The notes below the pieces were generated by a model that saw nothing but the letters and a program-made list of their open reading frames with translations, was not told the origin of the DNA and ran no database searches. Made by a program: the position numbers and the translations under genes. Positions 6,028-62,035 of a DNA stretch of 64,000 bases are shown piece by piece. Positions within the stretch are counted from its first letter, which is position 1, and every line of letters starts with the position of its first letter. The stretch lies in contig CM000432.1 in the NCBI GenBank assembly GCA_000165345.1, forward strand, positions 992,001 through 1,056,000. Direction: 5' to 3'.

Positions 6028-6050
6028 TCCCGCCCACACGTGGCGCTAAA
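6028..6050. promoter_or_regulatory. E2F-like box (CCCGCC + GTGGCGC) in the divergent promoter between the B-box gene and GDI
   Basis: tcccgcccacacgtggcgctaaa lies in the 5582-6418 intergenic region between two head-to-head genes. GGCGC cores like this recur upstream of most genes in the window. Confidence 0.45.
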
Positions 6051-6123
6051 ACCTAATTATAAATAAAATGTCATAAATTATGGGGAAAAAAGGATAAAAA
6101 TAATATTTGGGAAAAAAACAAAT

Positions 6124-6140
6124 TTTTTTTTTTTTTTTTT
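6124..6140. repeat. poly(T) homopolymer tract (about 17 nt)
   Basis: A direct run of T sits in the intergenic region. Confidence 0.8.
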
Positions 6141-6418
6141 CCTCAAAGTAATTTATTAAGTTTTTATATATATATCAAAGTAAGAGCCAGAGTTGTTATT
6201 ATATGTTTAAAAGGCTAAGGTCATATACTAGATTTGTTTTAACATAGGTTGAAATTATCTTGTGTGTGCATTGTGGAGGAAGAATAAGAATAGAATTGAC
6301 AAAGCAAAGAAGAGAAAGAAAAAAAAAAAATAAGCATGCAAATATTTTGACTTTTATTTTTCTTTTTTTTTCTTTATAATATTATTTGGAACAGTTGATA
6401 AAGCGATTGAATATAATA

Positions 6419-7801
6419 ATGGATGAGAAATATGATGTATTGATATGTGGAACAGGACTAACTGAATGTATAATAAGTGGTTTATTATCAACATCAGGAA
6501 AAAAAGTTTTACATATTGATAGAAATAGTTATTATGGTGGAGAAGCAGCATCTTTAAATCTAACAACATTGTATCAAAAATTTAGACCTGGTACTTCTCC
6601 TCCAGCAAATTATGGAGCTAATAGAGATTGGAATGTTGATCTAATACCAAAGTTTGTAATGGCAAGCGGTGATCTTGTAAAGATACTATTAAAAACAAAA
6701 GTAACAAGATATTTAGAATGGCAAGTAATAGAAGGAACTTATGTATATCAATTTCAAAAAGGAGGATTGTTATTTAATCCAAAATTTATACATAAGGTAC
6801 CAGCAACAGAAATGGAAGCTTTAAAGAGTCCATTACTGGGTATTATGGAAAAAAATAGATGTAGATCATTCTTTTCATTTGTAGCCAATTGGTCAGATGA
6901 CGATGTTTCAAAGCAAATGGGATTCAATAGAGATAAGAACACAATGAAAGATATTTATGATCATTTTGGTTTGTCTTCAACTACAATAGATTTTGTTGGG
7001 CATGCTTTAGCTCTATATACAAATGATGATTATATTAATAAACCATGTGGCGAAACTTTAGATAAGATCAGATTATATATGATGAGTCTAAGTAGATATG
7101 GTAAATCACCTTTTATATATCCTGTCTATGGTCTTGGAGGTTTACCAGAAGGTTTTTCAAGATTATGTGCAATTCATGGTGGTACCTTTATGTTGAATAC
7201 AAATATTGAAAAATTTCTATATGATGAACAGGGCAAAGTATCTGGTGTTGTTACATCACAAGGAAAAGCTGAATGTAAAATGGTAATTTGTGATCCATCA
7301 TACGTTTTAAATGAAAATGATAGTAAACCTAAAGTTAAATGTATTGGTAAAGTTTTACGTTGTATATGTATTTTAAATTCTCCAATTAATGATACTAATG
7401 ATGTATCTTCATGCCAAATTATTATTCCTCAAAATGAGCTTGGAAGAAAAAATGATATTTATGTTATGATGGTTTCATGTACTCATGGAGTAGCTCTTAA
7501 AGGAAAGTACATTGCAATCATATCTACTACCGTTGAAACAGAAAATCCACTTTTGGAAATTAATCCCGCAATAAAACTTTTGGGAAATTCCATTGAAGAA
7601 CAATTTTTCTATACATCTGACTTATATGAACCTATTGATTCAGGAAAAGATGACAATGTTTTTGTCTCTAAATCTTGTGATGCTTCCTCACACTTCGAAT
7701 CTCTCACCCAAGATGTATTGAGACTTTGGAAAAATATTACTGGGGAAGATTTGGACCTCACTAATATTCCTAATGAAGATGAAGCAGATGGAGAATACTG
7801 A
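6419..7801 (+). CDS. GDI: Rab GDP-dissociation inhibitor (GDI)
   Basis: The N-terminus [42 protein letters not shown] matches the GDI/REP FAD-like fold signature ([21 protein letters not shown]... in metazoan GDI). The GDI frame stays open through 470 aa. Position 6386 in the ORF track is a TTG, so the true start is the ATG at 6419. Confidence 0.9.
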   Translation: [460 protein letters not shown]

Positions 7802-8530
7802 GGTAGTTTTTACTAGTTAATCCTAATAAATATTTACTTAATCGTCTACTCATAACACTACTTGGATATATACTTAAATACTTTATTATCGTAATATTAT
7901 TATCACACATTATTTCTTACTTTCTTTTTTCCCTCCCCCCTTATTTTTTGTAATTATCTATCTCTTCAACTTTCTTAAATTACTACTTATGATACTTAAG
8001 TAAATATAATTTTATCATTTTCATACACTTTAAAAATTATTTACCTAATATTAATATTATACGTCATAATTTTTGTCATTTTTTCCTATTATTAGTTCTT
8101 ATACTAATTCAATGTATTGCGTAAATACTAACTCAGATTTTATTAAAAAATCTTATCTAAAGAAAATAATTAGGGGATATATTAAAAACTCAGATTGCAT
8201 TGTTTTTATATTCAATATAATATGTTGTATTACTAAATTATTATTAAATATCATAATAAAAATTACTTTATGAAGCCCGCCAAAAAATGCATGTATGCAG
8301 AAAATAATTAAATTAATTGGGAATTAAATTATTTTTTATCCCATATTTTTTCTTAAAAAAATGAAAATGAAGTTCCTTAACCAAACCCCATTATTTAGTC
8401 AATTATATTCGTTTATTTTTACTTTCTTGAGCAATGTTATTTACTATTTTTAATTTATTTCTACCAATAAATAAATAAATAAATAATATATACATTTACT
8501 TAAAACCATTTTGATCATTTAAGTTTTAAA

Positions 8531-11722
<3,192 letters not shown>

Positions 11723-12203
11723 TTTAATAATAATCAATAAATAAAAGAATTTATCAAATATATATATATAATCCAATTAGAAAAAGTTTTTTTTTTTTTT
11801 ATTTTTATTTTTTTTTTTATTAGTATTTTAAAATTATGATAATATTCTATTATTTAATTCCTGTATACTTCAAATTTTAAATACTCAATTCTGAATACTA
11901 GCTTTACTCAATTGGACAAACTGAATCATTTCAAGGCAAATTACTGCCAATCCTAAATTTTTTATTTATTTATTTTATTCAATTCCAATTAATTTCAAAC
12001 GCTATTTTTAGTTCAGCTTAACACTACTTAAAAATGGAAGAAATCAAGTCTAGCCAATTATTCTATACATCTTTGACATTTATTTGCTATTGATTCCAAA
12101 ATCCGTCAATTTACCTCCTCTTTTTCTCTGATTCTTTAACCTCTTTATTATTTTAATCTTTTTTGCGTTTTTAGATATATTTTACATAAATTAGTGTGAG
12201 GGA

Positions 12204-12213
12204 TGGCGCCAAC
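12204..12213. promoter_or_regulatory. E2F-like palindromic box TGGCGCCAA, about 480 bp upstream of the Sec14-like gene
   Basis: ggatggcgccaac; the 11-mer ttagtgtgagg sits immediately 5' of it. Confidence 0.45.
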
Positions 12214-12815
12214 TATATTAATAAAGGGGGGCAATTATTATAATAATTATACACGTAACTGAATATTAATGCACGAAAATTAGTTTATTTAACTTGCAAA
12301 ATAGCAAATATAATTTATTGCAAGTAAATATTTAATTTTATAATAATTTTATTATGAGCAAAATTATTATTTGCTCTCAGTTTTGGTAATGATTACTTAT
12401 GTATAAAATAAAAATAAAGGATCGAAACTTATTCTTGTTTATTATAGACAAAATTATTAGAATTTTTTTTTGCGCATGCAATTTGACCACATAAAATTTG
12501 CCTTGCATGCATTAAAGTGGCAGCATATAGACGAAATATATATATTTATATATTATGAATATTTTTTAAATAAATAATAAAGAAAAAAAGGAATAATAAT
12601 AAAATCATGAATTAATATAATCAATACTTTAAAAATTAATAATTTCCGCCGGACTCGAAGCGAAATTTGAATTTACTTCATTTTCTGGTAAATTGAAGAA
12701 AATGTATTTACAGATGCATTTAATATATTCGCTATCGTAAAAGAAAAAAAACCTTCAGATAATAAAGGGAAAATAATATAAATTATGAGTTAATATATTT
12801 GTTTTTCAATAATAG

Positions 12816-13766
12816 TTAGTTGAACGCATTAAAGCTTTTATCAATAGCTTCAACACATGCAATTTTATAATGATTACAATTTACTGAGCTAAGCTCATTC
12901 AAGTATTTTTCAGGTTCGTCTTTTAAATTTAGGAAATAACTACAAGTTATTAAGTTAGAAAGTGTAACTTGGCATTTAGGATCTATTTTATAAGCATTTA
13001 AAAGAAGTTCGTAAGCATCATTCCAATGTTGTCTTTGCATATGTATTACAGATATCCCATTCAAAATAATAATTGATTGTGAGTCTCTTGCTTTAGATGG
13101 AAGTCTGAAGGAAGAATTCTCACCAAAATCAGTCTGCATATTTGCATAAGTGATAAAAGATGAGTTATATTCACCTTTAAGGCACTGTAACCAAGCTAAT
13201 GCGGTTCTAACTAGAGAAGATTCTTTAAAATTAGAAAGGGAATGATAGTTCTCCAATTCACAAGTATACGTATCATAATTCTCAATCAAATCATCAAATA
13301 AAGATTGTGCCAAATCATATCTATTCATAATGCAAAAAACAAAAACTTGTATAATCTTTAAACTTGGTGGAGCACATTCTGTGATTGATAATGCTGATTT
13401 AAAATCATTCATATATAAATTCATTAATAATAGTATAACATCAATCATCACAATTTTATTATTATTATGTACATATAATTGCATCATTTCATTAATTAGT
13501 TCATACCTTCTTTCATCTGTAGTTTCTGGTAAATTAAAAATGGTAAACAAACAAACAGCTGCAATACCAAACTTTTGATTTGAAATAGATTCTGAATAAT
13601 ATGATCCTATTGAATCCTTTTCTATTTGATTCAAATGAATTTTACATCTAAATTGAATAAGTTCCAAAAGTACGTCCACATCGAAATCTTGACTTCTGAT
13701 ATGTTCTGCTTCTTTTATCAGCATTAACACTTTTTCATAGTATCCTGAATTCATACAATTTTCAAT
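12816..13766 (-). CDS. COPE: Coatomer epsilon subunit (COPI), main exon
   Basis: The C-terminal TPR-like region aligns with metazoan COPE: RTALAWLQCLKGEYNSS...IILNGISVIHMQRQHWNDAYELLLNAYKIDPKCQVTLSNLITCSYFLNLKDEPEKYLNEL versus LTQLATAWVSL...[30 protein letters not shown]...TLINLVVLSLHLGK. The in-exon ATG is at 13754. Confidence 0.75.
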   Translation of the reverse strand: MENCMNSGYYEKVLMLIKEAEHIRSQDFDVDVLLELIQFRCKIHLNQIEKDSIGSYYSESISNQKFGIAAVCLFTIFNLPETTDERRYELINEMMQLYVHNNNKIVMIDVILLLMNLYMNDFKSALSITECAPPSLKIIQVFVFCIMNRYDLAQSLFDDLIENYDTYTCELENYHSLSNFKESSLVRTALAWLQCLKGEYNSSFITYANMQTDFGENSSFRLPSKARDSQSIIILNGISVIHMQRQHWNDAYELLLNAYKIDPKCQVTLSNLITCSYFLNLKDEPEKYLNELSSVNCNHYKIACVEAIDKSFNAFN

Positions 13767-13812
13767 CTAAAAATAAATAATTAAATTAACAATTATTATA
13801 TTTAAAGCTTAC

Positions 13813-13848
13813 CTCATTAATTTCTTCCGAGTAGAGGCTCATTTTCAT
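13813..13848 (-). CDS. COPE: Putative 5' micro-exon of the coatomer epsilon gene (MKMSLYSEEINE) joined via a 46-nt GT-AG intron (13767-13812)
   Basis: On the minus strand the sequence reads ATGAAAATGAGCCTCTACTCGGAAGAAATTAATGAG|gtaagc...ttttag|ATTGAAAATTGTATGAATTCAGG. It is in frame with the main exon. The added residues extend the conserved N-terminal helix, which is ELFDVKNAFYIGSY in metazoan COPE. Confidence 0.45.
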
Positions 13849-14293
13849 ATAGTTTTTGTTCGTTTTAATGTGTGTATATATTTATAAGTTTTATATTTAA
13901 TAATTGCAATTAACACTAGAAAATATTATTTGCTTATTATTTTTATAATAATATAAAAATTAGAAACAAAAATATTTAGGCTTTTATATTAAATCAAAAA
14001 AATAACTTATTTAAACAATTTGTTCTTTCTTTTTATATTAATTATTCACAATCTTTCATTAACTATTATTTTGTAAATCAATTTGGTATTCTTTTATTTA
14101 TTAAATCCTAGATTTGATTTTGGTAAATAAATATATTTATCAATTACCACTTTGATCTTTGTTAATAAGTTTTATCATATAACTGTATTATACTATTTTG
14201 TGCACTTCTTAAAGAAGAAATTGAGTAGAAAACCCCTCAAACTAATTTGTTTACATACAAAACATTCCCGCTCAAATCAATCAAATTTAGGTA

Positions 14294-14326
14294 ATGGCGC
14301 CTAACTTAAATATTAGTGAGAGGCGC
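14294..14326. promoter_or_regulatory. E2F-like box ATGGCGCCT plus a second GGCGC core, in the divergent promoter between coatomer epsilon and the DUF155 gene
   Basis: gtaatggcgcctaacttaaatattagtgagaggcgctt. Confidence 0.45.
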
Positions 14327-14654
14327 TTATTCTATTAATTGCAATAATGGAGCATAATGACATTATTTGTAGAAAAGAGTAACTTGCGATATTTAGGAAG
14401 AAAAATTAAAATTAATTTGTTCAAAATTAATTTATATATAAATAAAAATATATATATACATTTATAGATAAATCTGTAAGTGTGTATATATATTCATATA
14501 TATAAATATATATATATGAATATATATATATATAAACATTTATATATTTTGCATGATTTTATAAAGTAGATTCAACAAGAAGAGAGAGTATTGAACTGAT
14601 ATATATAATTAAAGCAATAGTACCTAAAGAAGAAGTAAGAATCATTTTATAAAT

Positions 14655-15620
14655 ATGGAAGATATTGACTTTCATTCAGATGGTAACTTGAAGAGTAGAC
14701 AATTCAAATCTTCAATTCGTGTTGCACGAAAACGAGCGGATATCCAAACATCTTTAAAAGAGCTCGAGCAAGAAATTAAAGAACCAGCTGGTATGGTATG
14801 GGCATGTTGCTTTGCAAATGAAATGGACTTTCCAATGATTCTTGAAGCTTGGAAACAAGGAGATTTATCTTCTAAACAAATACATATTGAAATGACATTT
14901 AGTGAGGTAGTATGCTTAAGATGGCTGCAAAACAGAATTTGTTATGTTTTTAAATTTGGCTGTGTTGTTGGATGGGATTTAACAAGAGCTGAAAGAGTTG
15001 CAATAGTCAATATATTAAAAACATTTATTAAGCAACCATTACATATAAGAACTGATGAATCTCAGGATGATGATATGACTTATGTTTGGGGAGAAAGACC
15101 ATCCATTAAGCAAGATAACATTCATTTAGTTTCCGATTCATTATTAGAAAGATTAAGTTATAGCTATGCATTAAGTCAAAGTGTAAAACTTTCTGTTTTT
15201 GAAAGTGTTGTTGATCAAAATATTGATAGTACCAGATCACTCCCAGAAAGCTTGGCTAAAAGTGGCACAATCAAAGATAATAGAGAAGATATTAGTAAAA
15301 GAATTGGTGAACTTTTTATTAATCGTTTTTATATTAATTTGCAAACTGATATTTTAGATACACCAGATATATTTTGGGATTTGCAAGATTATGAGCCACA
15401 TTATATTACTTGCAGAAATTATTTAGATATACCTAAAAGAGTTGAAATCCTTAATCAAAGATTGGATATCATTAAAGACTTATATGATATGCTAAATAAT
15501 GAGTTATCCCTTCAACACGGTTATAAGCTCGAATGGATTGTTATTTATTTGATTTGTGCTGAAATTGTTATTGAGGTTGTTTGGAATATATTAATTAGAG
15601 ATATTTTCAACCTTGTATAA
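14655..15620 (+). CDS. RMD1/DUF155-family protein (Sad1-interacting factor-like) with C-terminal transmembrane helix
   Basis: 321 aa. Its motif ICYVFKFGCVVGWDLTRAERVAIVNIL resembles the Y-x-F-x-x-G-x-VV-x-W core of DUF155. A C-terminal hydrophobic helix (WIVIYLICAEIVIEVVWNILI) is typical of the family. Confidence 0.5.
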   Translation: MEDIDFHSDGNLKSRQFKSSIRVARKRADIQTSLKELEQEIKEPAGMVWACCFANEMDFPMILEAWKQGDLSSKQIHIEMTFSEVVCLRWLQNRICYVFKFGCVVGWDLTRAERVAIVNILKTFIKQPLHIRTDESQDDDMTYVWGERPSIKQDNIHLVSDSLLERLSYSYALSQSVKLSVFESVVDQNIDSTRSLPESLAKSGTIKDNREDISKRIGELFINRFYINLQTDILDTPDIFWDLQDYEPHYITCRNYLDIPKRVEILNQRLDIIKDLYDMLNNELSLQHGYKLEWIVIYLICAEIVIEVVWNILIRDIFNLV

Positions 15621-16076
15621 TAATTTTTGTTATTTGAATTTTAATATTCAAATTAATTAGTTTTTTTTTTCAGTAGAAATTCATAATATTAACTATTAAA
15701 TATATAAAATTATTCAAATATAAATATTAAGTTCTTTTTCGTAATTATTTTTTGGTTAAATAATAAATTACATGTAATCATTTGCACACGAACTTTTTTT
15801 TTAATTTAATATTTTCTTCTATATACTAAAATTTTCTTAATATTACCTATTACTATTGATTTTTGCTTTAAATACTACCTATTTTCACAACTTATTTTAC
15901 TAACTACTATTGTATAAACAAACTACAGCAAACTTACTTCCCTTATCTCATTATTTTCTTTCTTATCTCCATTATTTTTTTTTTCTTTCCCCCTCCCCCT
16001 TTTCTTTTTCTCCCCCCTTTTGAAATTTATTTGACTAAACTATTTTGCATGTAAATTATAAAATATTTTATATAAA

Positions 16077-16085
16077 TGGCGGGCT
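16077..16085. promoter_or_regulatory. E2F-like variant ATGGCGGGC, about 570 bp upstream of the metacaspase gene
   Basis: tataaatggcgggcttttcg. Confidence 0.3.
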
Positions 16086-16203
16086 TTTCGAATATTAATT
16101 AATAATATGAACTAGAAATTGTTTTTAATCCACACAGTAATTAAAATACAAGTTATTTACAATACCAATAAAAAAAAAATAAAATTAAATTAAAAAAAAA
16201 AAT

Positions 16204-16234
<31 letters not shown>

Positions 16235-16649
16235 TTATATATAGATATATATAATATATATTTTAAATAAAGTACTATTACAAGTGCATTGAAAGAAAGA
16301 AAGAAAGGCAGGTCCAATAATTATATACAGATATCATCATACATATATTTCTGTTAAGTTCATGAAACTTTAAAATTAACAAATTGTTATATTTTAAAAA
16401 TAAAAGAAAATTTAACACATATGGTTGATCTAGTCTAATTGGTTTTTTATTTTATTTTAATTTGGAAATTACTATTACTAATTAACATTAATCAATTTTG
16501 ACTAAATTATATCTTACAGGAAAACTTATATTAAAAAAAACATCAAAAAAAAACAACAAAAACAAGAAATAAGGAAATATTAATTGATTTATATTTATGT
16601 GCATGTTATCGTATTTACAAAAATTATTTTAATAGGAAATTAAAAAAAA

Positions 16650-19448
16650 ATGAATGGGCATATCCCTAAGAAAAAAGCAGTCATTATTGGAATTAATTAT
16701 GTGGAAACAGAAGGAATTAGTTTAAGAGGTTGTGCAAATGATGCAAAGTTAATGGCTTTGACATTAATGTCTCACTTTGATTTCAATGCATCAGATATAA
16801 TCTTTCTAACTGATAGTGAACCAGATAGAGGTTATGATACTTTAGTTGATTCTCAAGAACCAATTTCATTCTATGATAACTGGCCAAGAGATGAAATTCC
16901 ACCAACAAAACATCATGATTCCAGAATATATCCAAATAAAAGAAATATTTTAACAGCAATAAATTGGTTAACTAGAGATGCAGAAGCTGGTGATATTCTT
17001 GTATTTTATTTTGCAGGACATGGAGTACAAGTAGATGTTCTAACATCATATGAAGGAGAAGGATATGATGAAGCACTACTTCCAGCAGATTCTACATTAT
17101 ACTTAGCTTCAAATGGTTCAGATTTAGATGAATATAATGTATTACTTTGCAGTGAACTTAAAGAATTATTATTGTGTGTTCCTCCTGAAACTCAATTGAA
17201 TGTAATTTTAGATTGTAATGGAGGTCAGACTATTTTAGATCCAGCTGGTAATTTGAATGGTATGTGGTATATTAAAGGTATAGTAACAAAAGGAATTTGG
17301 CCATTTCTTTCAGCTACTAATAAAGTTAAAAGAGCACAATATAATTCATCAGTATTTAAAGACGAACAAATGGTTCATAGACTTGTAAGACCAAGATATG
17401 TTCCTTGTGTTCAAATTGGTAATACACAAAACTTAAAAGATCCAAGTCTTCAATCTACACAATATGTATCTTTATCATGTAAAGGATATTGTTTTTCTGC
17501 TGCTCCATGGAGTCAAATAGCTGCTGAAGCCTCATTACCTTTGTTATCAGTTACTAGAAAGACTCAAGTAACAGATTCTTCAATGGGTTTATCAAATGGT
17601 CCAATTTCTACTCCTAATTCTCAATCATTTAATAGTTCTGGATTACTTTCATCTACAACAGAATCTAAATTAGGTGTAATAGAGATTCCAATATCTAGAG
17701 GTGGAGCTTATAATATAATTCATGGAGTTTTTACCTGGTCATTTTGTAAAGCTATTAGTGATATTGCTACTGGAATATTACAACAAGGAAGACCAAGGAA
17801 TGAACTTTCATATAAAACAATTCTAGCAAGAGTTAGAGAGTACATCTCATGCCTGAAAACTTCAATTCTTGCTCATTTAGATCAAAATCCAGAATTAACT
17901 ATTCATTCAGGAGGAGCTGGGACTGTTTCTGAATATTTTTGTTCTCCATTTGGAGGAGACAAAAGTATAGATTTTGATTTTGATCATTATTTTAGAATAA
18001 CTGATAATTGTATAAGACATTTAAGAAAGAACCAGAACTTTTTAATACCTCAAGAAGCTTACAATTCTATGTTACAAGCCAACAAGAATGATAACTTAGT
18101 TTTCCATTCTGTGAACCTAAGTATATTAAGTAAACCTATTAATTCATCTGAAAACCAGGTTTCACAAGTAGATTCCCCTCCAACATTTAGAGAAAACAAT
18201 GATCAGGAAGGCGAGAACAAGAAAGATGAATCCAATCAATTAGAAGATAGAAAAACAGTGGATACTAGTAAGAATATTAACCAAGATTTAGGTTCTGCTC
18301 CAAACTTAGCCTCAAATTCAGTTCCTATTTCAGCTCCTTCTTCTATAATAGGAGGGTCTATTCCAAATTCTAAAATTGGTCAATTCCCACCAAGTAATCA
18401 AATAAAAAGATTTGACCAAGAAATAATACAAAATCCCAATTTTAATTATAATGAAGATAATTTTACTCATTTTCCAGCATCCTCAGTTAATTTAGTTCCA
18501 CCAACTGCCAGTCTATTTAATCCAATAGTGTTCAACAATAAAAGTATTAATGAAGGTTTTCCTAATTACAACTTGAATAATTTTGACACAGAGAACAATC
18601 AGTTTTCAGATACTAATAATTTAAGAATAAATACAAATTCTTACTTGAATACCCAAAATGAAGTTATTATTGGTAAACATTTACATAAAAGTAATGAAAA
18701 CAAACCTTCAATAGGATTTAATACTTTTAATCCTTACTCACTGTTTGTTGGACCAGAATCTTCTAGTAACAATAACAACAGAAATAAAAATCAAGATTTT
18801 CATAATTTCAAATATCCTTTAGAACAAGTACAAATAAATGAATTAAAGCCACCAGTAAATGGAGTATTGTTTTCTAACCCAATAAAAAATATTACACCAA
18901 GAAACATTTCTCAAGTTACTCCAAATCAGAGATTTATCCAATCTCAAAACAATTTTCAAAACCCTCATAATTATACAAATATGAATCAATTCCCAGTACC
19001 TACATCATCACTATCATCCTCTTCACAACTTATAATACCTAATACTCCACCAACTTCTTCCTATAGAACATCAGATCAGCTAAATCATCCTAATCAAACA
19101 ACAAATTTTATTACTTACCCTCCTTTAACCTCAATGCAGTCAATAAACAAACATCTTGTTGCTCCAATTAGATCTCTTCCAAATTCTAATAATTTCCATC
19201 AACAATTACCTCAAACTGGGCATTTTACAAGCACTATAAATAGTCAATTTATGAACCCAGAACATTACTCTGATCGAAAGTTACTGAATTTTGGAGTAAA
19301 TGAACAATTCCTACAAATACCCAATGGATTATTCAATACTGTTAATCCATTCCCACCATCAAATCAAAGCAATAGTCAATTTTATCCCACATCTTTCGTT
19401 AGCTATCCTCCCAAACAACCAATAAATATGTTTGGCGCCCACATGTAA
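16650..19448 (+). CDS. Metacaspase-like (peptidase C14) protein with about 600-aa Q/N/S/P-rich low-complexity C-terminal extension
   Basis: The N-terminal 200 aa form a caspase-like fold. The catalytic His context is ILVFYFAGHGVQVD, the Cys context is LNVILDCNGGQTILD, and the conserved start is KKAVIIGINY. The rest is a compositionally biased tail (NPNFNYNEDNF, QNNFQNPHNYTNMNQF). Confidence 0.75.
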   Translation: MNGHIPKKKAVIIGINYVETEGISLRGCANDAKLMALTLMSHFDFNASDIIFLTDSEPDRGYDTLVDSQEPISFYDNWPRDEIPPTKHHDSRIYPNKRNILTAINWLTRDAEAGDILVFYFAGHGVQVDVLTSYEGEGYDEALLPADSTLYLASNGSDLDEYNVLLCSELKELLLCVPPETQLNVILDCNGGQTILDPAGNLNGMWYIKGIVTKGIWPFLSATNKVKRAQYNSSVFKDEQMVHRLVRPRYVPCVQIGNTQNLKDPSLQSTQYVSLSCKGYCFSAAPWSQIAAEASLPLLSVTRKTQVTDSSMGLSNGPISTPNSQSFNSSGLLSSTTESKLGVIEIPISRGGAYNIIHGVFTWSFCKAISDIATGILQQGRPRNELSYKTILARVREYISCLKTSILAHLDQNPELTIHSGGAGTVSEYFCSPFGGDKSIDFDFDHYFRITDNCIRHLRKNQNFLIPQEAYNSMLQANKNDNLVFHSVNLSILSKPINSSENQVSQVDSPPTFRENNDQEGENKKDESNQLEDRKTVDTSKNINQDLGSAPNLASNSVPISAPSSIIGGSIPNSKIGQFPPSNQIKRFDQEIIQNPNFNYNEDNFTHFPASSVNLVPPTASLFNPIVFNNKSINEGFPNYNLNNFDTENNQFSDTNNLRINTNSYLNTQNEVIIGKHLHKSNENKPSIGFNTFNPYSLFVGPESSSNNNNRNKNQDFHNFKYPLEQVQINELKPPVNGVLFSNPIKNITPRNISQVTPNQRFIQSQNNFQNPHNYTNMNQFPVPTSSLSSSSQLIIPNTPPTSSYRTSDQLNHPNQTTNFITYPPLTSMQSINKHLVAPIRSLPNSNNFHQQLPQTGHFTSTINSQFMNPEHYSDRKLLNFGVNEQFLQIPNGLFNTVNPFPPSNQSNSQFYPTSFVSYPPKQPINMFGAHM

Positions 19449-19848: not shown

Positions 19849-19871
19849 TGGCGCCACATTAGTGTGAGGTC
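19849..19871. promoter_or_regulatory. E2F-like palindromic box TGGCGCCA followed by TTAGTGTGAGG, about 590 bp upstream of the maspardin-like gene
   Basis: agatggcgccacattagtgtgaggtcc. The same 11-mer flanks the E2F box at 12191-12213. Confidence 0.45.
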
Positions 19872-20441: not shown

Positions 20442-21729
20442 ATGGTAAGAAGACTCTCAAGTGAATTTGGAGATTTTATCGAATCTTACCCTTTAAAAAG
20501 AACTACTATACCTTATTTAGATGGAATATGGACTTGGATTGATTGTAATCCAAAAAATGTGGAAAAAATTACTAAAATAGTTTCTCAAGAAAGTATTACA
20601 GATATTGAAGATATTACTGAAGATTACTATTCAAGGAAAACTGTNAAACANTTNNCTNTNNNNGATCNAGNNNAGCTTANTAAATTNAATAGNNCTTCAT
20701 TAAAATATAATAATAATAATAATAATGAAAAATACGAATCTAATGAATTTGATATAATTGTTATACTTCATGGTTTATCAGGAACTGCTGGTGAATACTT
20801 TATGTTTATGAAGAATATGTTAAAATGCGGATATAGAATAATTTCTGTACAATATCCAATATATGATGATATTAATGATTGGATAAGATCATTTTCTCTT
20901 TTTTTAGATCAACTTGAATTGGATTCAATACATTTATATGGAAGTGATTTAGGTGGTTATTTAAGTATAATGTTTTCACAAGAATTTCCTAATCGAGTAA
21001 AATCATTAATTTTGTGTAATGCTTTTGTATCAACATTAAATTTACCATTACCATCAATAGCTTCAACATTTTTATATTTTTGTCCACAATTTATTCTTGT
21101 AAAGTTAATTTCTGAAATTTTCAAAAATAGAGAAATATTATATTCACCAATAGAAGATATGGGATTTTATTCAACAGTAACAAATATTCATAAAGATAAT
21201 AATTTATATGATAAATTATATAATNCAATCATTAAATTTGTGATTGGACAATTATATTCACTTTCAAATCATGATTTGGCTTCTAGATTAAGTTTTGTAT
21301 TATCAGGTGATGAAACATTATCAATATTAAATTTGACAAAATTTTCAAGTATATTAGATAATAAAAGAATTACATTTTATTTCAAGTCCTGATAATTCTT
21401 TTGATGATCATAATTTCGTTAATTCAATAATAAAATTTGAAAATGTTAAACTTGCTCAACTAAAATATGGTGGGGACTTTCCTCATCTTTCAAATCCTGA
21501 TGATATTTCATTATTTTGTCAAGTACATCTTAGAAATTGTAATGCTAAAAAATATACTTATAAATCATCTAATAATGATTTGGTTAATAATAAACAAGAA
21601 TCTCCTAAAAAGTTAACAAGTTTAAATTCAAATTTCAGTCCAACAACTAGTTCAAGTTTTTATGAAATGCCTTATCCAGGAAATATTATTCATCATGAAT
21701 CATCTTTTGATTATAATATGATTAATTGA
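20442..21729 (+). CDS. Maspardin (SPG21/ACP33)-like alpha/beta hydrolase. The reading frame is broken by a +1 frameshift near 21385 and by N bases at 20645-20694 and 21225, probably from sequence quality.
   Basis: The core FDIIVILHGLSGTAGEYFMFMKNMLKCGYRIISVQYPIYDD...IHLYGSDLGGYLS...RVKSLILCNAF parallels maspardin PLIFLPPVSGTADVFFRQ...GYRVIALQYPVY...VHLFGASLGGFLA...RVHSLILCNSF. After the stop at 21392 the +1 frame continues with ...AQLKYGGDFPHLSNPDDISLFCQVHLRNC, matching the maspardin C-terminus [29 protein letters not shown]. The stop is at 21727-21729. Confidence 0.7.
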
Positions 21730-26393: not shown

Positions 26394-27166
26394 GATCTTA
26401 ACGAATATTCACTTTTAGAATTCCAATTTAAGTGTTATATATATATACATATATATATATATAAATTGTATATTGGATTTAATAGTAATAATGGTAATAT
26501 TGATCCAATACAAATATGAATAATGACCAGGAAATAATTCAAAATATTCAGAATATAAAATAATAATATTTTGATGTTTATTATAATATATTTAACCTTT
26601 AATGATCACTTCTTTGAACTATCTTACCTTAGTAATATATTTGTATTGGTACTTATGTATTGAAAATTAATTATTTGTCAACATAAGAATAAATTTGGAA
26701 ATTTCCTGGTTTATAATATAATATAAAGTAGTAAAACAACCTTTATTTCTTTTCTTTTTTGTTTTTATAGAAAAAAAATAAATAAGTTTATTAATTTACT
26801 ACTTAATTAATTTTATTTTTTTATTTATTTGTTTATTAATATTATTATTTGATAATTAATTTTTATTATTTTAAATTATTTTCTTTAAAATTTTTCTAAA
26901 CGTAATTAACCCCCTATTTCTTAGATACCAGTAAAAAATATCAACAAAAAAAAAAAGTAAAAAATTCTAATTTTTTTCTTTTTAATCTGTTTGATGATCT
27001 AAATCCACCTTATTTTCAATTTTATATGCCAAAATCATATATTCTAATTATCTGAAGAAATACTGTTTATTATTTCTGTTTTCTATTTCATTACATTTAA
27101 TATATATATTTTCCTCTTCTTCCTATTCCCCTCTATTATTAATTAAATTCACATTTAATACACACG

Positions 27167-27176
27167 TTGGCGCCAA
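27167..27176. promoter_or_regulatory. Perfect palindromic E2F-like box TTGGCGCCAA in the divergent promoter between the Sel1-repeat gene and ITPase
   Basis: acacacgttggcgccaaaataat. Confidence 0.5.
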
Positions 27177-29173: not shown

Positions 29174-29185
29174 TTTGGCGCCAAA
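29174..29185. promoter_or_regulatory. Perfect 12-bp palindromic E2F-like box TTTGGCGCCAAA, about 330 bp upstream of the carboxypeptidase-like gene
   Basis: cacacaaatgtggtttggcgccaaaccgaaaa. Confidence 0.5.
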
Positions 29186-29510: not shown

Positions 29511-31505
29511 ATGACAATAAAAGTATATTTACATTTGCTAATACTAGCATTATTTATATATAATGGTCTTGTATATGGATTTGAAATGGGAAACATTGGG
29601 TCATATATAAGATCCCTAATAGGATTTAATAAAAAAAATGATTCATTCAATGAACAATCAATGTTCAAGTATAAAAGTTATATACAACATTTAAATCTAC
29701 TACAAGAATTAGAAACTAAATGTTCAAATATTATGAAAATCTACAAATATAACAGTGAAAAAGGACTATATTGNTGGTGAATCAAAATGTCAGTATTTAC
29801 ATATTAAGCTTGGAATATCAAATATTAATTATGATGTACCAAATATATTATTCATCTCTGGAATACATGGAGATGAAAAATTAGGTGTAGAAATTGCTAC
29901 TGAATTTATAAGCTCTATTTGTGATCAATATATTAATCATAATAATATTGGAATCAAGTATCTTTTAAGTACTAGAAATATATGGATTATTCCTATTGCT
30001 AATCCTTGGGGTTTTTATCATAATAAAAGAACTGAAGAAGAAATTGATGTTAATAGAGATTTTCCTTCAAAAAGTGGANAAAATTGTCTTAAAAGTGAAA
30101 GTTCTAAAATGATCTATAATTTGTTTAATCTTAAATCATTTGTATTTGTTGCAGCTTTACATGGTGGATTAAAAAGTATTTCTTATGGAAATGGCTATTT
30201 TGATGATATTGATGAAAATAACAAAANCTTTGAATNTATCGCTAAAGATTTACAAGCTTCAGCTGGTAAAATATTAAATAATAATGATATTCATAAATTA
30301 AATTACTTTTATGATCAAATTGGTAATATTGCAAAAACTGTATATCCAATAAAAGGAGGATTTGAAGATTGGTCTTTATATGGTTATAATGTAAGTCATA
30401 TATTATGTAGTGACTATATTCAAAAATCTCATTCTGCAAATAAAGGTGGATCTTTAACTTTTCTTATAGAAACTGATCATCAAAAAACTCCTAATCAAGA
30501 TACTTTAGGATCTAAATCTGATCTATTTAGCCTTATTGATCTTGATAAACTTTCTATACAACCATCTCATATTACCAGAAATATTAGAATGTTACTTAAA
30601 CTTACTGAATATACTTATCCAGATATTATTTTTTTTAATAAACCACCAAGTACCGTTTATTTTGGTCAAACTTTTATATTATATATAGCTATTATTGGCT
30701 GCTATTCTTTCAGTAATTTAAGGATTAAACTTGAAAATAATAACAATAATAATANTAATAATAATAATNATATTAATCATTATTNTAATACTANCTTAAA
30801 TTCTGAACAACAACCTATTTATCTTAATTTTTATGTTAATGAAGGATTAGATGGTCTACAAAATACTATTTATTATAAAAGATGTTCTTCTTTATTTCTA
30901 AATAATCAAGAAATCCAAGATATCCTTGATAATGANTCTTTNTATACATNTNAAGATAAATGTAATGAATCTAACTTACTTACAANAATTGTTAACCGAA
31001 GTTTTAGAGTTAAAAATAAATGTAAATCTATATATCAATTTAATAAATTTNAGCCTATANAAATTTTGNTAAGGTACCGAATGAGACAACAATTCTTAAT
31101 ACTATGAATGGTGAAATTGAAAATTTTCTATTAAANATTGAATTAGAATTTGATACTGAACTTACTCANACTATTTCATATTCTAATAAAAATATATTTG
31201 NAAAATTTACAANACTTAGATNTTCTCAAAATGGAAATAAAATTGATAGACCTATTATTATTCCGATTCAAAAAGATAATATATTATCAAAAAATATACA
31301 GAATTCTGAAATTCAAACACAATTCTATTCAAATTCATATGATCCATCAAAATCATTATTATTCTCTGGATTTCAAATTAAAGTTATTAAGCCTCAAGAA
31401 ATATTACAAATAGAATTCTCTACTTGTTCTGAATCTTCTATACAAAATATTGGTAAATGGTCTAAATCATGTCAAACTTTTCTTGACTTTACTAAAAAAA
31501 CTTAA
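29511..31505 (+). CDS. Secreted/membrane M14-family zinc carboxypeptidase-like protein. The frame is fragmented by N bases (29764, 30079, 30227, 30236, 30745-30794, 30936-31069, 31136-31222).
   Basis: The signal peptide is MTIKVYLHLLILALFIYNGLVYG. M14 landmarks are FISGIHGDEKLGVEIATEF (the H-x-x-E zinc ligands), NPWGFYHN, NRDFPSK and AALHGGLKSISYGNGY (the third His ligand). A hydrophobic segment is YFGQTFILYIAIIGCYSF. The ORF-track pieces 29511-29780, 29755-31107 and 31104-31505 are the same gene in shifted frames. Confidence 0.55.
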
Positions 31506-31588
31506 ATATACAAAATTATATAAATAATGGCTCTAATCCACTTTCTAATATTTTTCAATATCTTGAATCAAATAGAATTCCTAATTCT

Positions 31589-33110
31589 ATGAATTATCAA
31601 GTATTTCAAGATAATATTAAATATATTCAAAAAAATGTAAATCATGAATTAGAAGGTAACTTATATATTATACCAAGTGAACCAAGAACTTCTTCAATCA
31701 TTACAAAAAGTAACATGAATCATAATAATAATAATAATAATATTGAAATAATTAAACCAATTCCTTCACTATTAGAAAATGAAACTACAATTTCTACAAC
31801 TTTACCATTCTTTAATAATATTACTTTAGAACTTACTATTACTGTTAGTAATGAACCTAAAAATAATGGTGAATATGTAATATTAAAATTTGCAGAATTC
31901 TTAAATCTTTTAAATTATAATATATCTAAATATCATAATATAGAGAAAATATTGGATAATAATAATAAAGATTTAAATTATGTTGGAATAATTTCCATTA
32001 ATGATTTTTATAAAGATGATAATGAAGAATTTTCAATTTCAAAAAATTAAAGCAATTTCTAGACAGAGAATATATGAAATGATAACAGAAATACAAAATA
32101 GAGAAGATTTATATCNATTTAATGAAGATAGAAAAATAGAATTACTTGGTAAATATTATATAATTTTAAGATACCTTAAGAATAACTTAATTTCAATATC
32201 ATTAGGAAAAGTTCATATTGATAATTATATTAAAAATTCTCTTGGAATGAATATCAAAGAATTTCAAACATCTAAAAATAGTAATATCAATTTAATGGAA
32301 GATTTTAATAGTAATATAAATAATAACAATAATAATAATAATAATAATAATAATATTCAAGAAAAAAAATAATATTTATCAAGAACCATTAATAATTGCT
32401 TTAAAAGAACAACTAAAATCTTGGTGGTATAATAATTCAAAAGATTATATAGATTTTAGATTAGTTTTGGTATTTTGTGGATTACTTATGATAATATTTG
32501 CAATAATATTATTATTAATAAAGATAATGAGATATTATAATTGGGTACCTTTAAAATCTTTAAAATTAGAATTAAAGAAAAGATTCCGAACTAATTCAAA
32601 AATATTCATAATAGATATTTCAAGTGATGAAGATTCTGATATAAGTCAAGATAAGGAAAAGAAAAGAAAAAGAAGAGTTAAATCAAGAAAGATATATGAT
32701 TCACAAGAAATTAGTTATACTCCTAGAAGTGAATATTTATCAAATAAAAGTTATACTCTTTCTCAAAGATTTAATACAAATAATTCAGAAACAAGNAAAA
32801 AGTTAGAGATTCACCTTCAAATAGTCCAAGTTCAAAAGAATTTAAATTATCCAATTTAAATATGAGTTTAAGCCATTCATCATTATCATCTTTTGATAAC
32901 TTTAAATCCAGAACCAATACAATAAAAGAACTTGAAATAATTGAAATGGAGAGAAATTTAGATATTGGAATTACAAATCCAAATTCGAATAACAATAATA
33001 ATGATAATGATAATAATAATAATAATACAAAAAATACTTATACTGAATTATCTACATTTGTTTCAAAAAATAATAAATTTCAAGATCAAGATAATACCCA
33101 TGATCATTAA
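31589..33110 (+). other. Fragmented N/K-rich ORF series (31589-32050, 32001-32372, about 32380-32859, 32862-33110), probably one gene disrupted by N bases; contains a TM helix (VLVFCGLLMIIFAIILLLIKIM) followed by a basic K/R stretch
   Basis: Open frames abut or overlap, and the shifts coincide with N at 32116 and 32796. Low-complexity poly-Asn runs are present. No homology is recognised. Confidence 0.3.
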
Positions 33111-34329: not shown

Positions 34330-34558
34330 TGTGAACAAAAAAACAGTCAAATATCCTGGTTAAAAAGAAAAAAAAAAATTAATTAAAAAAGAGGAACTTG
34401 ATAATTTAATTGAATAAATTGAATTATTGTCTTAAAATATAATTTTTCTTTTTTAATTTAAGAAAAAAAAGTTATTCTTTCCAAATTAATCCTTTTTTTC
34501 CCCTTTGCCACCCCTCTTTATTTCCCTGCCAAAATAGTAACCAAGTGCCCCTTACGTG

Positions 34559-34570
34559 TTGGCGCCAAAA
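34559..34570. promoter_or_regulatory. E2F-like box TTGGCGCCAAAA in the divergent promoter between EMC2 and the 784-aa secreted-protein gene
   Basis: cttacgtgttggcgccaaaatgcag. Confidence 0.5.
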
Positions 34571-42817: not shown

Positions 42818-42867
42818 AAGGCGCCAATAATTGTTACATATACCGGCATTCCACATGTAGGCGCCAG
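42818..42867. promoter_or_regulatory. Two E2F-like boxes (AAGGCGCCAA and TAGGCGCCAG) 40 bp apart in the divergent promoter between the 1715-aa gene and the DEAH helicase
   Basis: atgacgtaaggcgccaataa...ccacatgtaggcgccaggcaa. Confidence 0.45.
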
Positions 42868-57513: not shown

Positions 57514-57860
57514 AAACACATACCGGTGTATGGTACCGAAAAAAAATAATAATTGAGGGGAAATAAGATATGTAAATTGTGAATAAAAGTATATATTAAA
57601 AATAAGTTTAGGTATAGGAAAAAAGAGGAATCAATCAGAGAAAAAAAATTATTTAAATAAAAATTTAAATAATTGAACAAGAGTGAAGAATTGTAAGTGC
57701 TGGGAGTTACATCCGGATTATCAATTTACTCATTCTTTTCTTTAAATATTGCAAAAAAAGAAAAAGGGAGAGCCAAAAATATCAGTCTTTGAAAGTCTTT
57801 TTCATATAAAATTCTTTTGATTTTATTTTTGTGTATGTGTATTTGCAACTTTTAATTGAA

Positions 57861-60122
57861 ATGAACGATAGAAGATACTTTCAAGGCTCTAAGAGAGGAG
57901 AGCTGCACGAATTAAAGGAGGAATTACACTCATCAAGTAAGGAAAAAAAGAAAGAAGCAGTGAAAAAAGTTATTGCAGCAATGACAGTAGGGAAAGATGT
58001 TTCTTCCCTTTTTCCAGATGTTTTAAATTGTATGCAAACTGGTTGTATTGAACTAAAGAAATTAGTATATCTATATATAATAAACTATGCTAAGGTACAG
58101 CCAGAGTTGGCTATTTTAGCTGTAAATACCTTTTTCAAAGATTCTATGGATTCAAATCCTTTAATTAGAGCATTGGCTATTCGAACCATGGGGTATATTA
58201 GACTTGAACAAATTACAGAGTATTTAGTTGAGCCTTTAAGAAGATCATGTAGTGATCCTGATCCATACGTTAGAAAAACTGCAGCAATTTGTATTGCAAA
58301 GTTATATGATATTTCTCCTACTTTAATGGAAGAACAGGGATTCTTTTCCTTGTTGAAGGATATGCTCAAGGATCAAAGTGCAATGGTTGTAGCTAATACT
58401 GTTGCAAGCTTATTAGAAATTTATGAAACTAGTATAAGTAAGGGTCATCAACTTGAATCTTTACAATCTATAAAAGACGATAAACAAGACCAAGGAATGA
58501 CTGAAGATCAGAAATTCTACAAATTGACTTTTAATGAGGTAGAAAAACACCAAATCCTACAAGCCTTGAATGAATGTACAGAATGGGGGCAGATTTATAT
58601 ACTAAATGTAGTAGCAGAGTGGAAGGTATCAACTGAAAAAGAAAGTGAACAAATCATCGATAGATTAACTTCTAGACTATCTCATGCAAATCCTGCAGTA
58701 GTTCTTTCAACTGTTAGAGCTGTTTTGAATCTACTGAAAAATTTGGAAAATGATGATTATATTACAGGTACCCTACGTAAATTAAGACCACCGATTGTTA
58801 CATTACTTACAACTTCACCTCCTGAAGTACAATATGTTGTTTTGAGGAATGTTCAGTTAATTGTACAATCATATCCTGCCTTTTTTGAAACAGAAATGAA
58901 GCTTTTCTATTGTAAATATAATGATCCTGCCTATATTAAGATTGAAAAGCTTAATTTATTATATAGAATGGCATCTATTGATACTGCAAATAATTTATTA
59001 AAAGAACTAAAAGAGTATAGTACCGATACGAATATAGAATTCTCAAGAAATTCTATTAAAATTATTGCATTAATATCTATAAAATTCAAAGAAACTGCCT
59101 CTAATTGTTTTCAAATCCTAGCAGAACTTATCACAAATTCTCATCAGGACCATATAATTCAAGAAGGAATTATCTCTTTAAGAGATATTTTGAGATCCTA
59201 TCCACAATTATCGTCAAATGTAATTCCCATACTAATGGAAGTATCAGAATCTATTGTTGAGCCTGAATCAAGATCTGCTTTTGTTTGGATTATTGGAGAA
59301 GTTTATGAGTTTGTTCAAGTAACAAAACCAAGTACAAAAAATGAAACTTTGAATGATTTTCTCCGTTATTTTGTTGATATATTTATTGAAGAATCAGTCT
59401 CCGTTCAACTTCAGATACTTACAACCATAGTAAAATGCTTTCTTAAAGCTCCAATTCATAATCAACAACTTGTTACTGATATTTTTAGACTTGCAACTAC
59501 TAATGCAGAAAATCCTGATGTTAGAGACAGAGCCTTGATATACTGGAGACTTCTCTCAACCAATCCTGAGGAAACTAGAAAAGTTGTTCTTTCTCAAAAG
59601 ACTGTATTATCTTCAAAAAGCTTTGATATTGAACCAAAACTTCTTGAAAAGCTTATGGGAGATCTTGGAATGATTTCCTCAGTATATCATAAACCTCCAA
59701 GTTGTTTTATTGATATTAGTAAGAATAATATAGTTCAAAATCAACTTCAAGCTTCTTCTGAATCTCAAAATCATTCAGCTTTAATTTCATCATCAGATTC
59801 CAATATCGATACACTTCCTTATAATATTGATTCTGGTTTTTCTGTTAGTTACTCAAATACTAACGAGCTAATAAATATTGATGATCTTATTTCTTATTCT
59901 ACTCCTGTATCAAATATTAACAGTAACAAAATATCAAGTTCTCAAGATATGAATTCGTCAAATCAAGTTCAAAGTTCTGAGCTTTTAGATTTTGGTCTCC
60001 CTGCTTCTAATATAAGCTTATTCAAAAGTAATACTCAGGGAGACAATAATCAAACAGGAGATGTGAACTCACAGCCATCTGGTAGCAATGTTGTTACATC
60101 TGTTGATCTGTTATCTCTCTAA
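57861..60122 (+). CDS. Adaptor protein complex beta subunit (beta-adaptin, AP-1/AP-2 type)
   Basis: [60 protein letters not shown]...[14 protein letters not shown]...[16 protein letters not shown]...[15 protein letters not shown] is near-collinear with metazoan AP2B1 (MTDSKYFTTNKKGEIFELKAELN...[32 protein letters not shown]...). The track's 57831 is GTG; the ATG is at 57861. A C-terminal low-complexity hinge replaces a recognisable appendage domain. Confidence 0.9.
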   Translation: [753 protein letters not shown]

Positions 60123-60423
60123 AAAGTAATAACTTTATAAACTTCAAGTTATATCTAACTAGAATATCATTAAAGTACAACATTTAAAATAGTCAATAGA
60201 AAAAAAAAGTTAAGGAGGTTTGATAATTTTCTTTTATATAATCCCAATGTCTTTTGATTAAAATTTGTGTATTTTTTTATAATAAAATACAAATTCACTT
60301 TTGTATTACTCCAATTTGAGCAATAATTCTTAATTTGAAGTGTTTGATATTAAGTTAAAATAAAAAAGGATTAGCAATAAATCTTTGGATTACTTTCTTG
60401 ACAAAATTGTAGAAATCCTTATA

Positions 60424-61390
60424 TTACTTCTCCTTATTACTTGTATTATTTGCATTTTCAAAATTATTATTATTATTATCTAAACCAATAGAAGACATAA
60501 AATCTCTCACATCATCTATTGTTATGGTATTTTTATTTTGGTCATCACTCATTCTGCTTCTTAAAAATGATATAAACTTATCAGCAAATTCTCTATAACC
60601 TTGAGCTAAATGTATCTTCTTTTCATGAGGTAATGAATTAAATATATTTGCAAAACCATTAATTCCGTTTGCTCCTGATTCACCAGATTCACTCTCATCT
60701 GAGCCACTAAATCCAAAAATATCTCCTTCGAGTATTTCCTGAATAGTAATTGTTTTGTCATCTTCAGAATCTTCTATTGTATCTTCGTTTACATTGTCCA
60801 AGATTTCATCGCTTTCTTTAATATTTTCAATCTCATCCTTATTCTTGCAATATCTCAAAGAAATTCCATTATAATTTAAATGGGTTATTCTTTCTTTACT
60901 TTCAAAAACTACTCTAGTATTATCTGACTTAAATTCATCTCTTTCTTCATATTTGAGCTGTTAAATTAAAAGAAGTTAATTTGTTTGTTTTAATTGGATT
61001 TAATTAAAAGATTCTTTTGAAAGTACAAATCAAGCCTTATCTTTCTAATCAAACCAAAGACTTGACTTGAATTGACTTATCAAATATATTAACTTAACTT
61101 ACCATATAAACTCTTCTACCTTTTGAATCCCTTTCCTCATTTTCTGTCATTAATATTCTCCCTGGCCACCACACAATTTCCTCTTTTTCTAATAATTCTT
61201 TAGAATTATCATGATCACAAAATTCGGTACCTATTATCCACTTTAAAAGTGATATTTAAATACAGAATTTTAATGTTTTAGGAAAAAAAATTGGTTAACT
61301 TACTCTTACAAAGATTGTTTGGCCAATATTTATTCCATAGGAAGCCTTTAAGATTGCAATATCACAAAAATCTCTAATTTGATTACTCAT
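60424..61390 (-). CDS. Small acidic protein with a putative PWWP/Tudor-like barrel motif, 3 exons
   Basis: Minus-strand exons are 61390-61304, 61240-61103 and 60957-60424. The introns are 61241-61303 (63 nt, GTAAGT..AAAG) and 60958-61102 (145 nt, GTAAGT..ACAG). The product is in frame at 252 aa: MSNQIRDFCDIAILKASYGINIGQTIFVR|WIIGTEFCDHDNSKELLEKEEIVWWPGRILMTENEERDSKGRRVYM|LKYEERDEF...RYCKNKDEIE.... Exon 3 is the 60424-60858 ORF of the track. The WWPGRI...VYMLKYE motif resembles the PWWP aromatic-cage core. Confidence 0.5.
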
Positions 61391-62022
61391 TATAGCATTA
61401 ATTAATGAAAAAGATATAGGTTCATACTATACTTGCTATTAATACAAACGCTTGGATTAAGCAATATATTCAAACAAATAATAGAATATTACGTATTTTG
61501 ACCTCTTGTTATCTTTTCTTAATTAAATATTCGAAAGATTTTACTAAAATAAGAAAGTTCACTTTTTTTTGAGTTACTTTTTATTATTTTTTAATAAATT
61601 ATTAATTAGTCCTTAATTTTCCCTCATTTACCTATTTACCGGAATTTTCTATTCCAGAATTTAATATACTAAGACGTTATAAAACTTTATTTAGAAAAAG
61701 TTTTGTGGGAATTCAAATCCAATCCGTATATAATAAAAATAAAAATTGCTAGTATTCTCAATATCTTCCATTTTTAATTGTTTCCAGGAAAATACTGTAA
61801 CATGTGAGTTTATTTATAGCTATATTTTGATTAATTTAAATATATCTATACGTAGATACACTAATGTTTAAAGTTAGAGTTATCAATATTGATATTTACT
61901 TAATTTAGAAAATCAGAAAGAATTTTTATCTGCTCCTTTTTGAAATTTAAAGTTTTTTAAATCTCCTACTTCCCCTCGATTAAATCTTTAATTTTGCATT
62001 AATATTATTGGGTACCCTCCAT

Positions 62023-62035
62023 TTAGGCGCCAAAT
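62023..62035. promoter_or_regulatory. E2F-like box TTAGGCGCCAAAT in the divergent promoter between the PWWP-like gene and the RING-finger gene
   Basis: ccatttaggcgccaaatgattt. Confidence 0.5.

Follow-up and report, generated by a model that had tools for sequence, protein, structure and literature searches.

The question raised by this locus is why DNA so rich in A+T (26.2% G+C, 73.8% A+T) should carry GC-rich hexamers, above all the palindrome GGCGCC, upstream of almost every gene. The stretch analysed, here called the window, comprises 64,000 nucleotides; a first-pass annotation had put its A+T content at about 70%, below the measured value, and had interpreted the hexamers as boxes for transcription factors of the E2F/DP type. 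We regard the boxes as E2F/DP-type cis-elements that very probably act as the main promoter element of Cryptosporidium parvum. They are a correct rediscovery of the published E2F upstream motif, and hence already known, because the motif, its spread over genes of unrelated function, its location in open chromatin and its occurrence in bidirectional promoters have all been described.

That the window is C. parvum follows from its near-identity to C. parvum assembly loci (99.8-100%, one locus at 99.96%), including those of GCA_015245375.1, the C. parvum reference assembly in 10.1101/2021.07.07.451495. Cryptosporidium proteins are the nearest relatives of the GDI protein (gene at 6419-7801), which occurs in identical form in several NCBI assemblies. 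With gene positions taken from annotated gene calls on matching same-species assemblies and domains assigned by Pfam, the map comprises 25 genes and 24 intergenic regions (seven divergent, nine tandem, eight convergent), two of the nine tandem gaps possibly lying inside split genes.

Relative to expected counts from 100 dinucleotide-preserving shuffles, the boxes are strongly over-represented. GGCGCC occurs 11 times compared to 0.13 expected, with no shuffle giving more than one; CCCGCC/GGCGGG occurs seven times (0.42 expected); and for the half-site GGCGC there are 25 strand-matches, spread over 14 places (1.98 expected). Defining a strict box as GGCGCC or CCCGCC/GGCGGG, the window holds 18. 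When 6- to 8-mers are ranked, without prior choice of motif, by how many promoter regions they occur in, GGCGCC comes out on top, present in 11 of 20 regions compared to 0.09 expected from an analytic Markov-1 model; it is followed by CCCGCC, the G-box (CCCCTC), ACACAC, ACACGT and TGCATG, all of them belonging to motif families already published for C. parvum (PMC3734150). The 14 positions listed in the first-pass annotation all hold the sequence described, offset by 1-3 bases: perfect GGCGCC at 12205, 14296, 19850, 27169, 29177, 34561, 42820, 42860, 51429 and 62026, and variants elsewhere, namely GGCGCT at 6042 beside CCCGCCC at 6029, GGCGGGC at 16078, GCCCGCCCG at 49228 and CCCGCCC at 57507. 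Every listed box is thus genuine, but the list is incomplete, four more boxes (4328, 8276, 19434 and 55288) having been overlooked.

The form of the sites agrees with the E2F consensus, as had been claimed, in presenting a T-rich flank, a [G/C]GCGC[G/C] or GGCGGG core and an A-rich flank; the corresponding C. parvum motif is published (PMC3734150, PMC4117751). In the symmetrised set of 22 sites obtained from the 11 GGCGCC, A stands at +1 and +2 in 16-17, and T hence at -1 and -2. Flank information falls to approximately zero beyond 3-4 nt around GGCGCC, indicating a short site of about 10-12 bp and therefore not a dispersed repeat. Eleven strand-matches are exact TTTSSCGC, contributed by ten sites of which one, TTTGGCGCCAAA at 29174, is palindromic, fits on both strands and is counted on both. 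The sites also match the motifs DTTGSCGCCH (motif 3) or TTTGGCGGGAAV (motif 4) defined in the same organism by Oberstaller et al. 2013. E2F/DP would be predicted to prefer the box form TTGGCGCCAA, and TTTGGCGCCAAA and TTTCCCGCCAAA are candidate target sequences.

Placement of the boxes follows the gene starts. Eight strict boxes lie in the seven divergent regions, six in tandem regions, one in a convergent region and three in coding sequence (CDS), so that 14 of the 18 occupy 11.8 kb of promoter-bearing intergenic DNA and three occupy 49.5 kb of CDS. The corresponding densities are 1.19/kb and 0.06/kb (P = 4e-8), reproducing the upstream enrichment reported by Oberstaller et al. 2013, and 13 of the 14 GGCGC places are in promoter-bearing regions, the remaining one being in the metacaspase CDS, within its final 15 nt. 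The proposal that boxes are shared by seven head-to-head gene pairs holds without exception: each of the seven divergent regions has one box cluster, a single element shared between the divergent genes, and the next divergent region beyond the window (AAA/p581) likewise has one. Six of seven clear tandem 5' regions carry a box, the seventh having a half-site at 53135 only. Of the 23 annotated genes whose 5' flank is inside the window, about 20 have a strict box there; the others are ARM185, GCP_N (half-site only) and GCP_C.

The regularity is most pronounced at the level of the region, for which the window regions were tested together with four flanking regions of the same chromosome. Exactly one box cluster is present in 17 of the 20 promoter-bearing regions, while an equal number of clusters placed at random occupies 11.2 regions on average and 16 at most in 20,000 trials; since the observed value exceeds every random trial, the claim of a single copy per region is the best-supported part of the original observation. 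The distance to the nearest ATG is 71-776 bp, in accord with the 70-780 bp given before. A central position in the divergent pairs was stated too generally, in that four of seven boxes are truly central but three are clearly off-centre (relative positions 0.54, 0.56, 0.53, 0.48, 0.80, 0.29 and 0.75); overall, the boxes of divergent regions are nevertheless nearer the centre than random (P = 0.012).

Conservation of the boxes extends across the genus. Orthologous syntenic loci were compared from a sister species with 97% DNA identity and from C. canis, C. felis, C. xiaoi and C. andersoni. Past the closest species the intergenic DNA, an A+T-rich sequence, is essentially unalignable, with a mean column identity of 54%. 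Four of six promoter regions nonetheless have a box or half-site pair in every species recovered (GN3L>MFS, B-box/GDI, upstream of CRAL-TRIO, and COPE/DUF155), and two have a box in some species only (UBX>GN3L and DUF155>metacaspase). The bipartite layout of B-box/GDI, two half-sites 12-15 bp apart, is kept in all five species compared; the CRAL-TRIO promoter has a box in six of six species; and GGCGCC is kept at COPE/DUF155 in the five species with data, despite unalignable flanks, the C. canis contig stopping short of this region. The DUF155>metacaspase box (16077) is kept in the sister species, appears as a variant in C. andersoni and is absent in C. xiaoi. In these last two species, both A+T-rich, all strict boxes of the loci are in promoter-bearing regions (4/4 in C. 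xiaoi, 5/5 in C. andersoni), with none in CDS or convergent regions. That boxes persist at orthologous promoters while their flanks decay is good evidence of their maintenance by selection. At this fully syntenic locus the G+C content varies strikingly among species: C. parvum has 26%, C. canis 39%, C. felis 53%, and C. xiaoi and C. andersoni 27% each.

The individual elements of the divergent regions are as follows. Between B-box(-) and GDI(+) stands the bipartite box CCCGCCCACACGTGGCGCT (6029..6047, relative position 0.54), and between COPE(-) and DUF155(+) the box TGGCGCCT, accompanied by a GGCGCT half-site 26 bp off (14295..14326, 0.56). Sel1(-)/ITPase(+) is served by CACACGTTGGCGCCA (27161..27175, 0.53) and EMC2(-)/secreted-784(+) by ACGTGTTGGCGCCAAAA (34554..34570, 0.48). 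The region of the 1714-aa(-) and DEAH(+) genes holds two AGGCGCCA boxes 40 bp apart (42819..42866), at 71-111 bp from the DEAH ATG. The remaining two are TTTGGCGCCAA (51426..51436, 0.29), between p170/ARM(-) and secreted-315(+), and AGGCGCCAAA (62025..62034), between the 252-aa(-) and RING(+) genes at 211 bp from the RING ATG.

Among the tandem 5' regions, the form TGGCGCCA appears twice, at 12204..12211 in the region with COPE, 483 bp upstream of the CRAL-TRIO(-) ATG, and at 19849..19856, 592 bp upstream of the alpha/beta-hydrolase(+) ATG. The perfect double E2F half-site palindrome TTTGGCGCCAAA (29174..29185) precedes the ATG of the M14-like peptidase(+) by 334 bp. Variant forms are TGGCGGGC (16077..16084, 572 bp upstream of the metacaspase(+) ATG), GCCCGCCCG (49228..49236, 124 bp upstream of the M16 peptidase(-) ATG) and TTTCCCGCCC (57504..57513, 354 bp upstream of the adaptin(+) ATG), and the half-site TTTAGCGCC stands alone at 53132..53140, 289 bp upstream of the GCP N-terminal-domain gene(+).

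Two gene junctions have no E2F box between them, p170/ARM185 (49853-51223) and GCP_N/GCP_C (53424-57390), and could represent split genes, intron-bearing genes or co-transcribed units. The p170 N-terminus, MGCCVSK, is acylation-like, and sequence searches of the PDB with p170 and ARM185, considered as perhaps one armadillo-repeat gene, gave no matches. Elsewhere the window shows 41 scattered Ns and apparent frameshifts (20645-20694, 21225, 29774-32796), for which reason it is best described as a draft-quality copy of C. parvum sequence: the M14-like peptidase gene at 29511-33110, with an annotated length of 1174-1199 aa, is split into five open reading frames (ORFs), and the hydrolase ORF ends at 21392 while the annotated 428-aa protein extends to ~21729. 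The whole window was scanned against Rfam and for tRNAs without a match, and known RNA genes therefore do not account for the long intergenic regions.

Boxes also occur away from annotated gene starts. The earlier statement that convergent 3' regions contain none is correct for exact GGCGCC inside the window, but a variant lies at 8276 and a perfect GGCGCC (TGCATGTTCTGGCGCCATGTCAA) in the convergent DAGK/846-aa region ~8.4 kb past the window end (L013:20162). The former, of the form GCCCGCCAAAAAA, belongs to the same variant class as the boxes accepted by the first-pass annotation at 49226 and 57504. It is part of GCCCGCCAAAAAATGCATGTATGCAG (8275..8300), an E2F-like box plus a pair of TGCATG motifs in the convergent GDI/CRAL-TRIO 3' region (7802-8530), and is retained in the sister species, C. 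canis and C. felis. Together with the G-box-like CCCTCCCCCC at ~7930, it forms a promoter-like module without an annotated gene start, and the 7930-8300 module may be a promoter of a long non-coding RNA (lncRNA) or an antisense transcript. A small gene downstream of the 8276 box was considered and rejected, the sole ORF being 30 aa long and shared only with the 97%-identical sister species; it was not found in C. canis, C. felis, C. xiaoi or C. andersoni. In C. andersoni the GDI/CRAL-TRIO convergent gap measures 1546 bp (L007:11387-12932), compared to 393-750 bp in the other species, and contains neither a box nor an ORF of more than 42 aa.

Within coding sequence, full-consensus E2F sites are located inside the B-box gene (TTTCCCGCCAAAAAA, 4325..4339) and the GCP C-terminal-domain gene (TTTTTGGCGGGAAA, 55283..55296), and these may be internal or antisense promoters or else chance occurrences; the 4328 box is retained in the sister species and C. 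canis. The third, TTTGGCGCCCACATGT (19431..19446), falls at the very end of the metacaspase CDS, within its final 15 nt. The metacaspase-to-hydrolase interval thereby has two boxes, 19434 lying 416 bp upstream of 19850.

Partner motifs adjoin some of the boxes. A CACA(C/T)GT extension had been proposed for five of them, and the core ACAYGT indeed abuts the box at 6036, 27162, 34554 (as ACGTGT) and 42853, but the copy at 51413 lies 10 bp off. Its association with 5 of 15 intergenic boxes, compared to 0.73 expected, has a P value of 2e-4 for a pattern picked after seeing the data. The forms found near boxes are ACACGT, ACGTGT and ACATGT, with a further occurrence at 19441, and in the GN3L>MFS promoter an ACATG near the box is kept in five species. 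Box and ACAYGT may together make up a composite element that includes ACATGY, a motif known from the literature. Seven E2F boxes also have, at a distance of about 100 bp or less, a motif of 12 nt, ATTAGTGTGAGG, whose reverse complement is CCTCAMACTAAT, with copies at 6141, 12190, 14235, 14312, 16130, 19858 and 29158, two of them exact and two flanking the 14296 box as an inverted pair. With up to two mismatches allowed there are 9 matches compared to 3.9 expected. This 12-nt motif probably represents an extended version of 'unknown motif 14' of the literature, [A/C]AACTA, which was already reported to co-occur with E2F motifs (PMC3734150).

The first-pass annotation had suggested that the near-universal, single-copy and bidirectional use of the box was new, and published genome-wide data already describe it. 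An E2F-like motif in C. parvum, on chromosome 6, was first noted by Bankier et al. 2003, according to PMC12246861. Among the upstream motifs of C. parvum the E2F-like TGGCGCCA is over-represented most strongly, motif 3 being over-represented in 114 clusters and motif 4 in 47, and the clusters that bear it peak at any time point (PMC3734150); together the two are upstream of 161 of 200 co-expression clusters (PMC4117751). The motifs 3 and 4 of Oberstaller et al. 2013 have the same GGCGCC/GGCGGG core with T/A flanks, are likewise upstream of functionally unrelated genes and co-occur with the same companions (G-box, TGCATG, ACATGY, [A/C]AACTA); nothing substantive differs, and the window adds to that picture one cluster per promoter region, the mid-region position and orthologous retention as far as C. 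andersoni.

In sporozoites, Xiao et al. used the assay for transposase-accessible chromatin with sequencing (ATAC-seq) and found E2F to be the dominant motif of the peaks. Bidirectional promoters make up over half of the peaks; each peak contains a single E2F motif, with open chromatin at 5' ends (10.1101/2025.01.17.633476), and the likeness to the window is this single motif per 5' region. The same authors also report E2F motifs between the genes of polycistrons (10.1101/2025.01.17.633476), and the junctions lacking a strict box, p170/ARM185, sec315/GCP_N and GCP_N/GCP_C, may be the opposite case. Li et al. 2021 located E2F motifs within 100 bp upstream of 93 lncRNAs, mostly antisense and at gene 3' ends (PMC7840661), which offers a ready explanation for the stray boxes 8276, 4328, 19434 and 55288. 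In animals and plants, canonical E2F/DP sites (TTTSSCGC; structure of E2F4-DP2 on DNA by Zheng et al. 1999, cited in PMC3734150) have the same symmetric CG-rich core and T/A runs but, unlike the window boxes, mark a subset of promoters for the cell cycle or DNA replication, usually near the transcription start site (TSS). The C. parvum genome is reported to encode two (elsewhere three) E2F and two DP genes (10.1101/2025.01.17.633476, PMC3734150, PMC12246861, PMC4117751); cgd1_1560 and cgd6_1430 are E2F genes, cgd7_3650 and cgd8_1850 DP genes. No chromatin immunoprecipitation, gel-shift or TSS study of Cryptosporidium E2F emerged from a search of the literature.

A mechanism can be proposed in which the functional unit is a box of ~10-12 bp, composed of a T-rich flank, a GGCGCC or GGCGGG core and an A-rich flank, and one box cluster is typically placed near the middle of each intergenic region having at least one gene start. 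Winged-helix heterodimers of E2F and DP would bind the box, its palindromic core offering each subunit one half-site, and their binding would mark, or help to open, one nucleosome-depleted region where RNA polymerase II could initiate in one direction for tandem genes or in both directions for head-to-head pairs. Boxes in convergent regions and CDS would most likely drive antisense or long non-coding transcripts. The present analysis demonstrates the sequence of the boxes, their enrichment, placement and one-per-region regularity, and their conservation in the genus. The presence of E2F/DP genes, the motif in open chromatin and the bidirectional promoters are taken from the literature; E2F/DP binding and its transcriptional effect we infer, as does the literature (PMC12246861).

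Several points weigh against this proposal. A 2025 review concludes that very few putative regulatory components of Cryptosporidium have been confirmed experimentally (PMC12246861). With boxes at 71-776 bp from the ATG, some could be within 5' untranslated regions, and an element at nearly every promoter cannot alone explain stage-specific expression. Enrichment of the box in 5' over 3' regions, examined in the window and its flanks, is evident per region (17/20 promoter compared to 2/9 convergent regions with a box, P = 0.002, the convergent regions being shorter) but not per base, the densities of 0.62/kb in convergent and 1.08/kb in promoter regions differing without significance (P = 0.35). 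Given that P value and the shorter convergent regions, the 5' versus 3' contrast is plausible from the window data, not established. The boxes in two convergent regions and in CDS, together with the fact that binding was never demonstrated (PMC12246861), lend some room to a factor other than E2F/DP, or to a function as replication origin, insulator or methylation target, the resemblance to E2F sites then being coincidental. We consider this improbable: both published E2F forms (GGCGCC with T/A flanks and TTTGGCGGGAAA) share one positional class, the motif is located in open chromatin at 5' ends (10.1101/2025.01.17.633476), lncRNA promoters already described account for the boxes outside promoter regions (PMC7840661), and Cryptosporidium is the only apicomplexan genus retaining E2F/DP, comparable genes in other apicomplexans having upstream motifs of the AP2 type (PMC3734150, PMC12246861). 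That the boxes arose by chance or base composition, or are remnants of dispersed repeats or mobile elements, would have to lean on the small sample of a single 64-kb window and is extremely improbable. None of the 100 shuffles matched the observed counts, the box-holding intergenic regions (18-31% GC) are the most A+T-rich parts of the window, and boxes are kept at orthologous promoters across species; a repeat or mobile-element origin was rejected, flank similarity being gone beyond ~4 nt.

A refinement of the E2F/DP explanation rather than a true alternative to it is that the box serves as a general promoter-defining or chromatin-opening element, read by E2F/DP or by another protein resembling a general regulatory factor. 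The box would then set the nucleosome-free region and bidirectional initiation without being a classical cell-cycle-regulated E2F target, and stage specificity would come from the neighbouring ACAYGT, CCTCAMACTAAT, G-box and TGCATG motifs. Consistent with this are the near-universal occurrence over unrelated genes, one cluster per promoter region at a mid-region position, the partner motifs adjoining the boxes, the peaking of motif-bearing clusters at any time point (PMC3734150) and the single E2F motif in ATAC-seq peaks (10.1101/2025.01.17.633476). Expression of E2F and DP is, however, enriched in asexual stages (10.1101/2025.01.17.633476), arguing for some stage dependence, and we hold the general-element account to be possible at somewhat less than an even chance. 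More tentative still is an extended form of it, which we would sooner doubt than adopt: a genus-wide promoter-defining element, exactly one cluster per nucleosome-free region licensing both directions, with ACAYGT directly adjacent and CCTCAMACTAAT within ~100 bp making up a composite core promoter conserved from C. parvum to the gastric C. andersoni, and with stray boxes marking unannotated non-coding transcripts.

Lastly, the small additions of the window to the E2F/DP explanation are the one-cluster regularity, the orthologous retention as far as the gastric species, and the ACAYGT and CCTCAMACTAAT-like motifs adjacent to the boxes; the bipartite B-box/GDI box, the COPE/DUF155 box and the stray 8276 box are suggested as candidate sites for binding and reporter work. 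As Cryptosporidium is alone among apicomplexan genera in keeping E2F/DP, and the motif appears to dominate its promoters, E2F/DP is a plausible master switch of transcription in this genus, unlike in Plasmodium and Toxoplasma, a view that has already been published.

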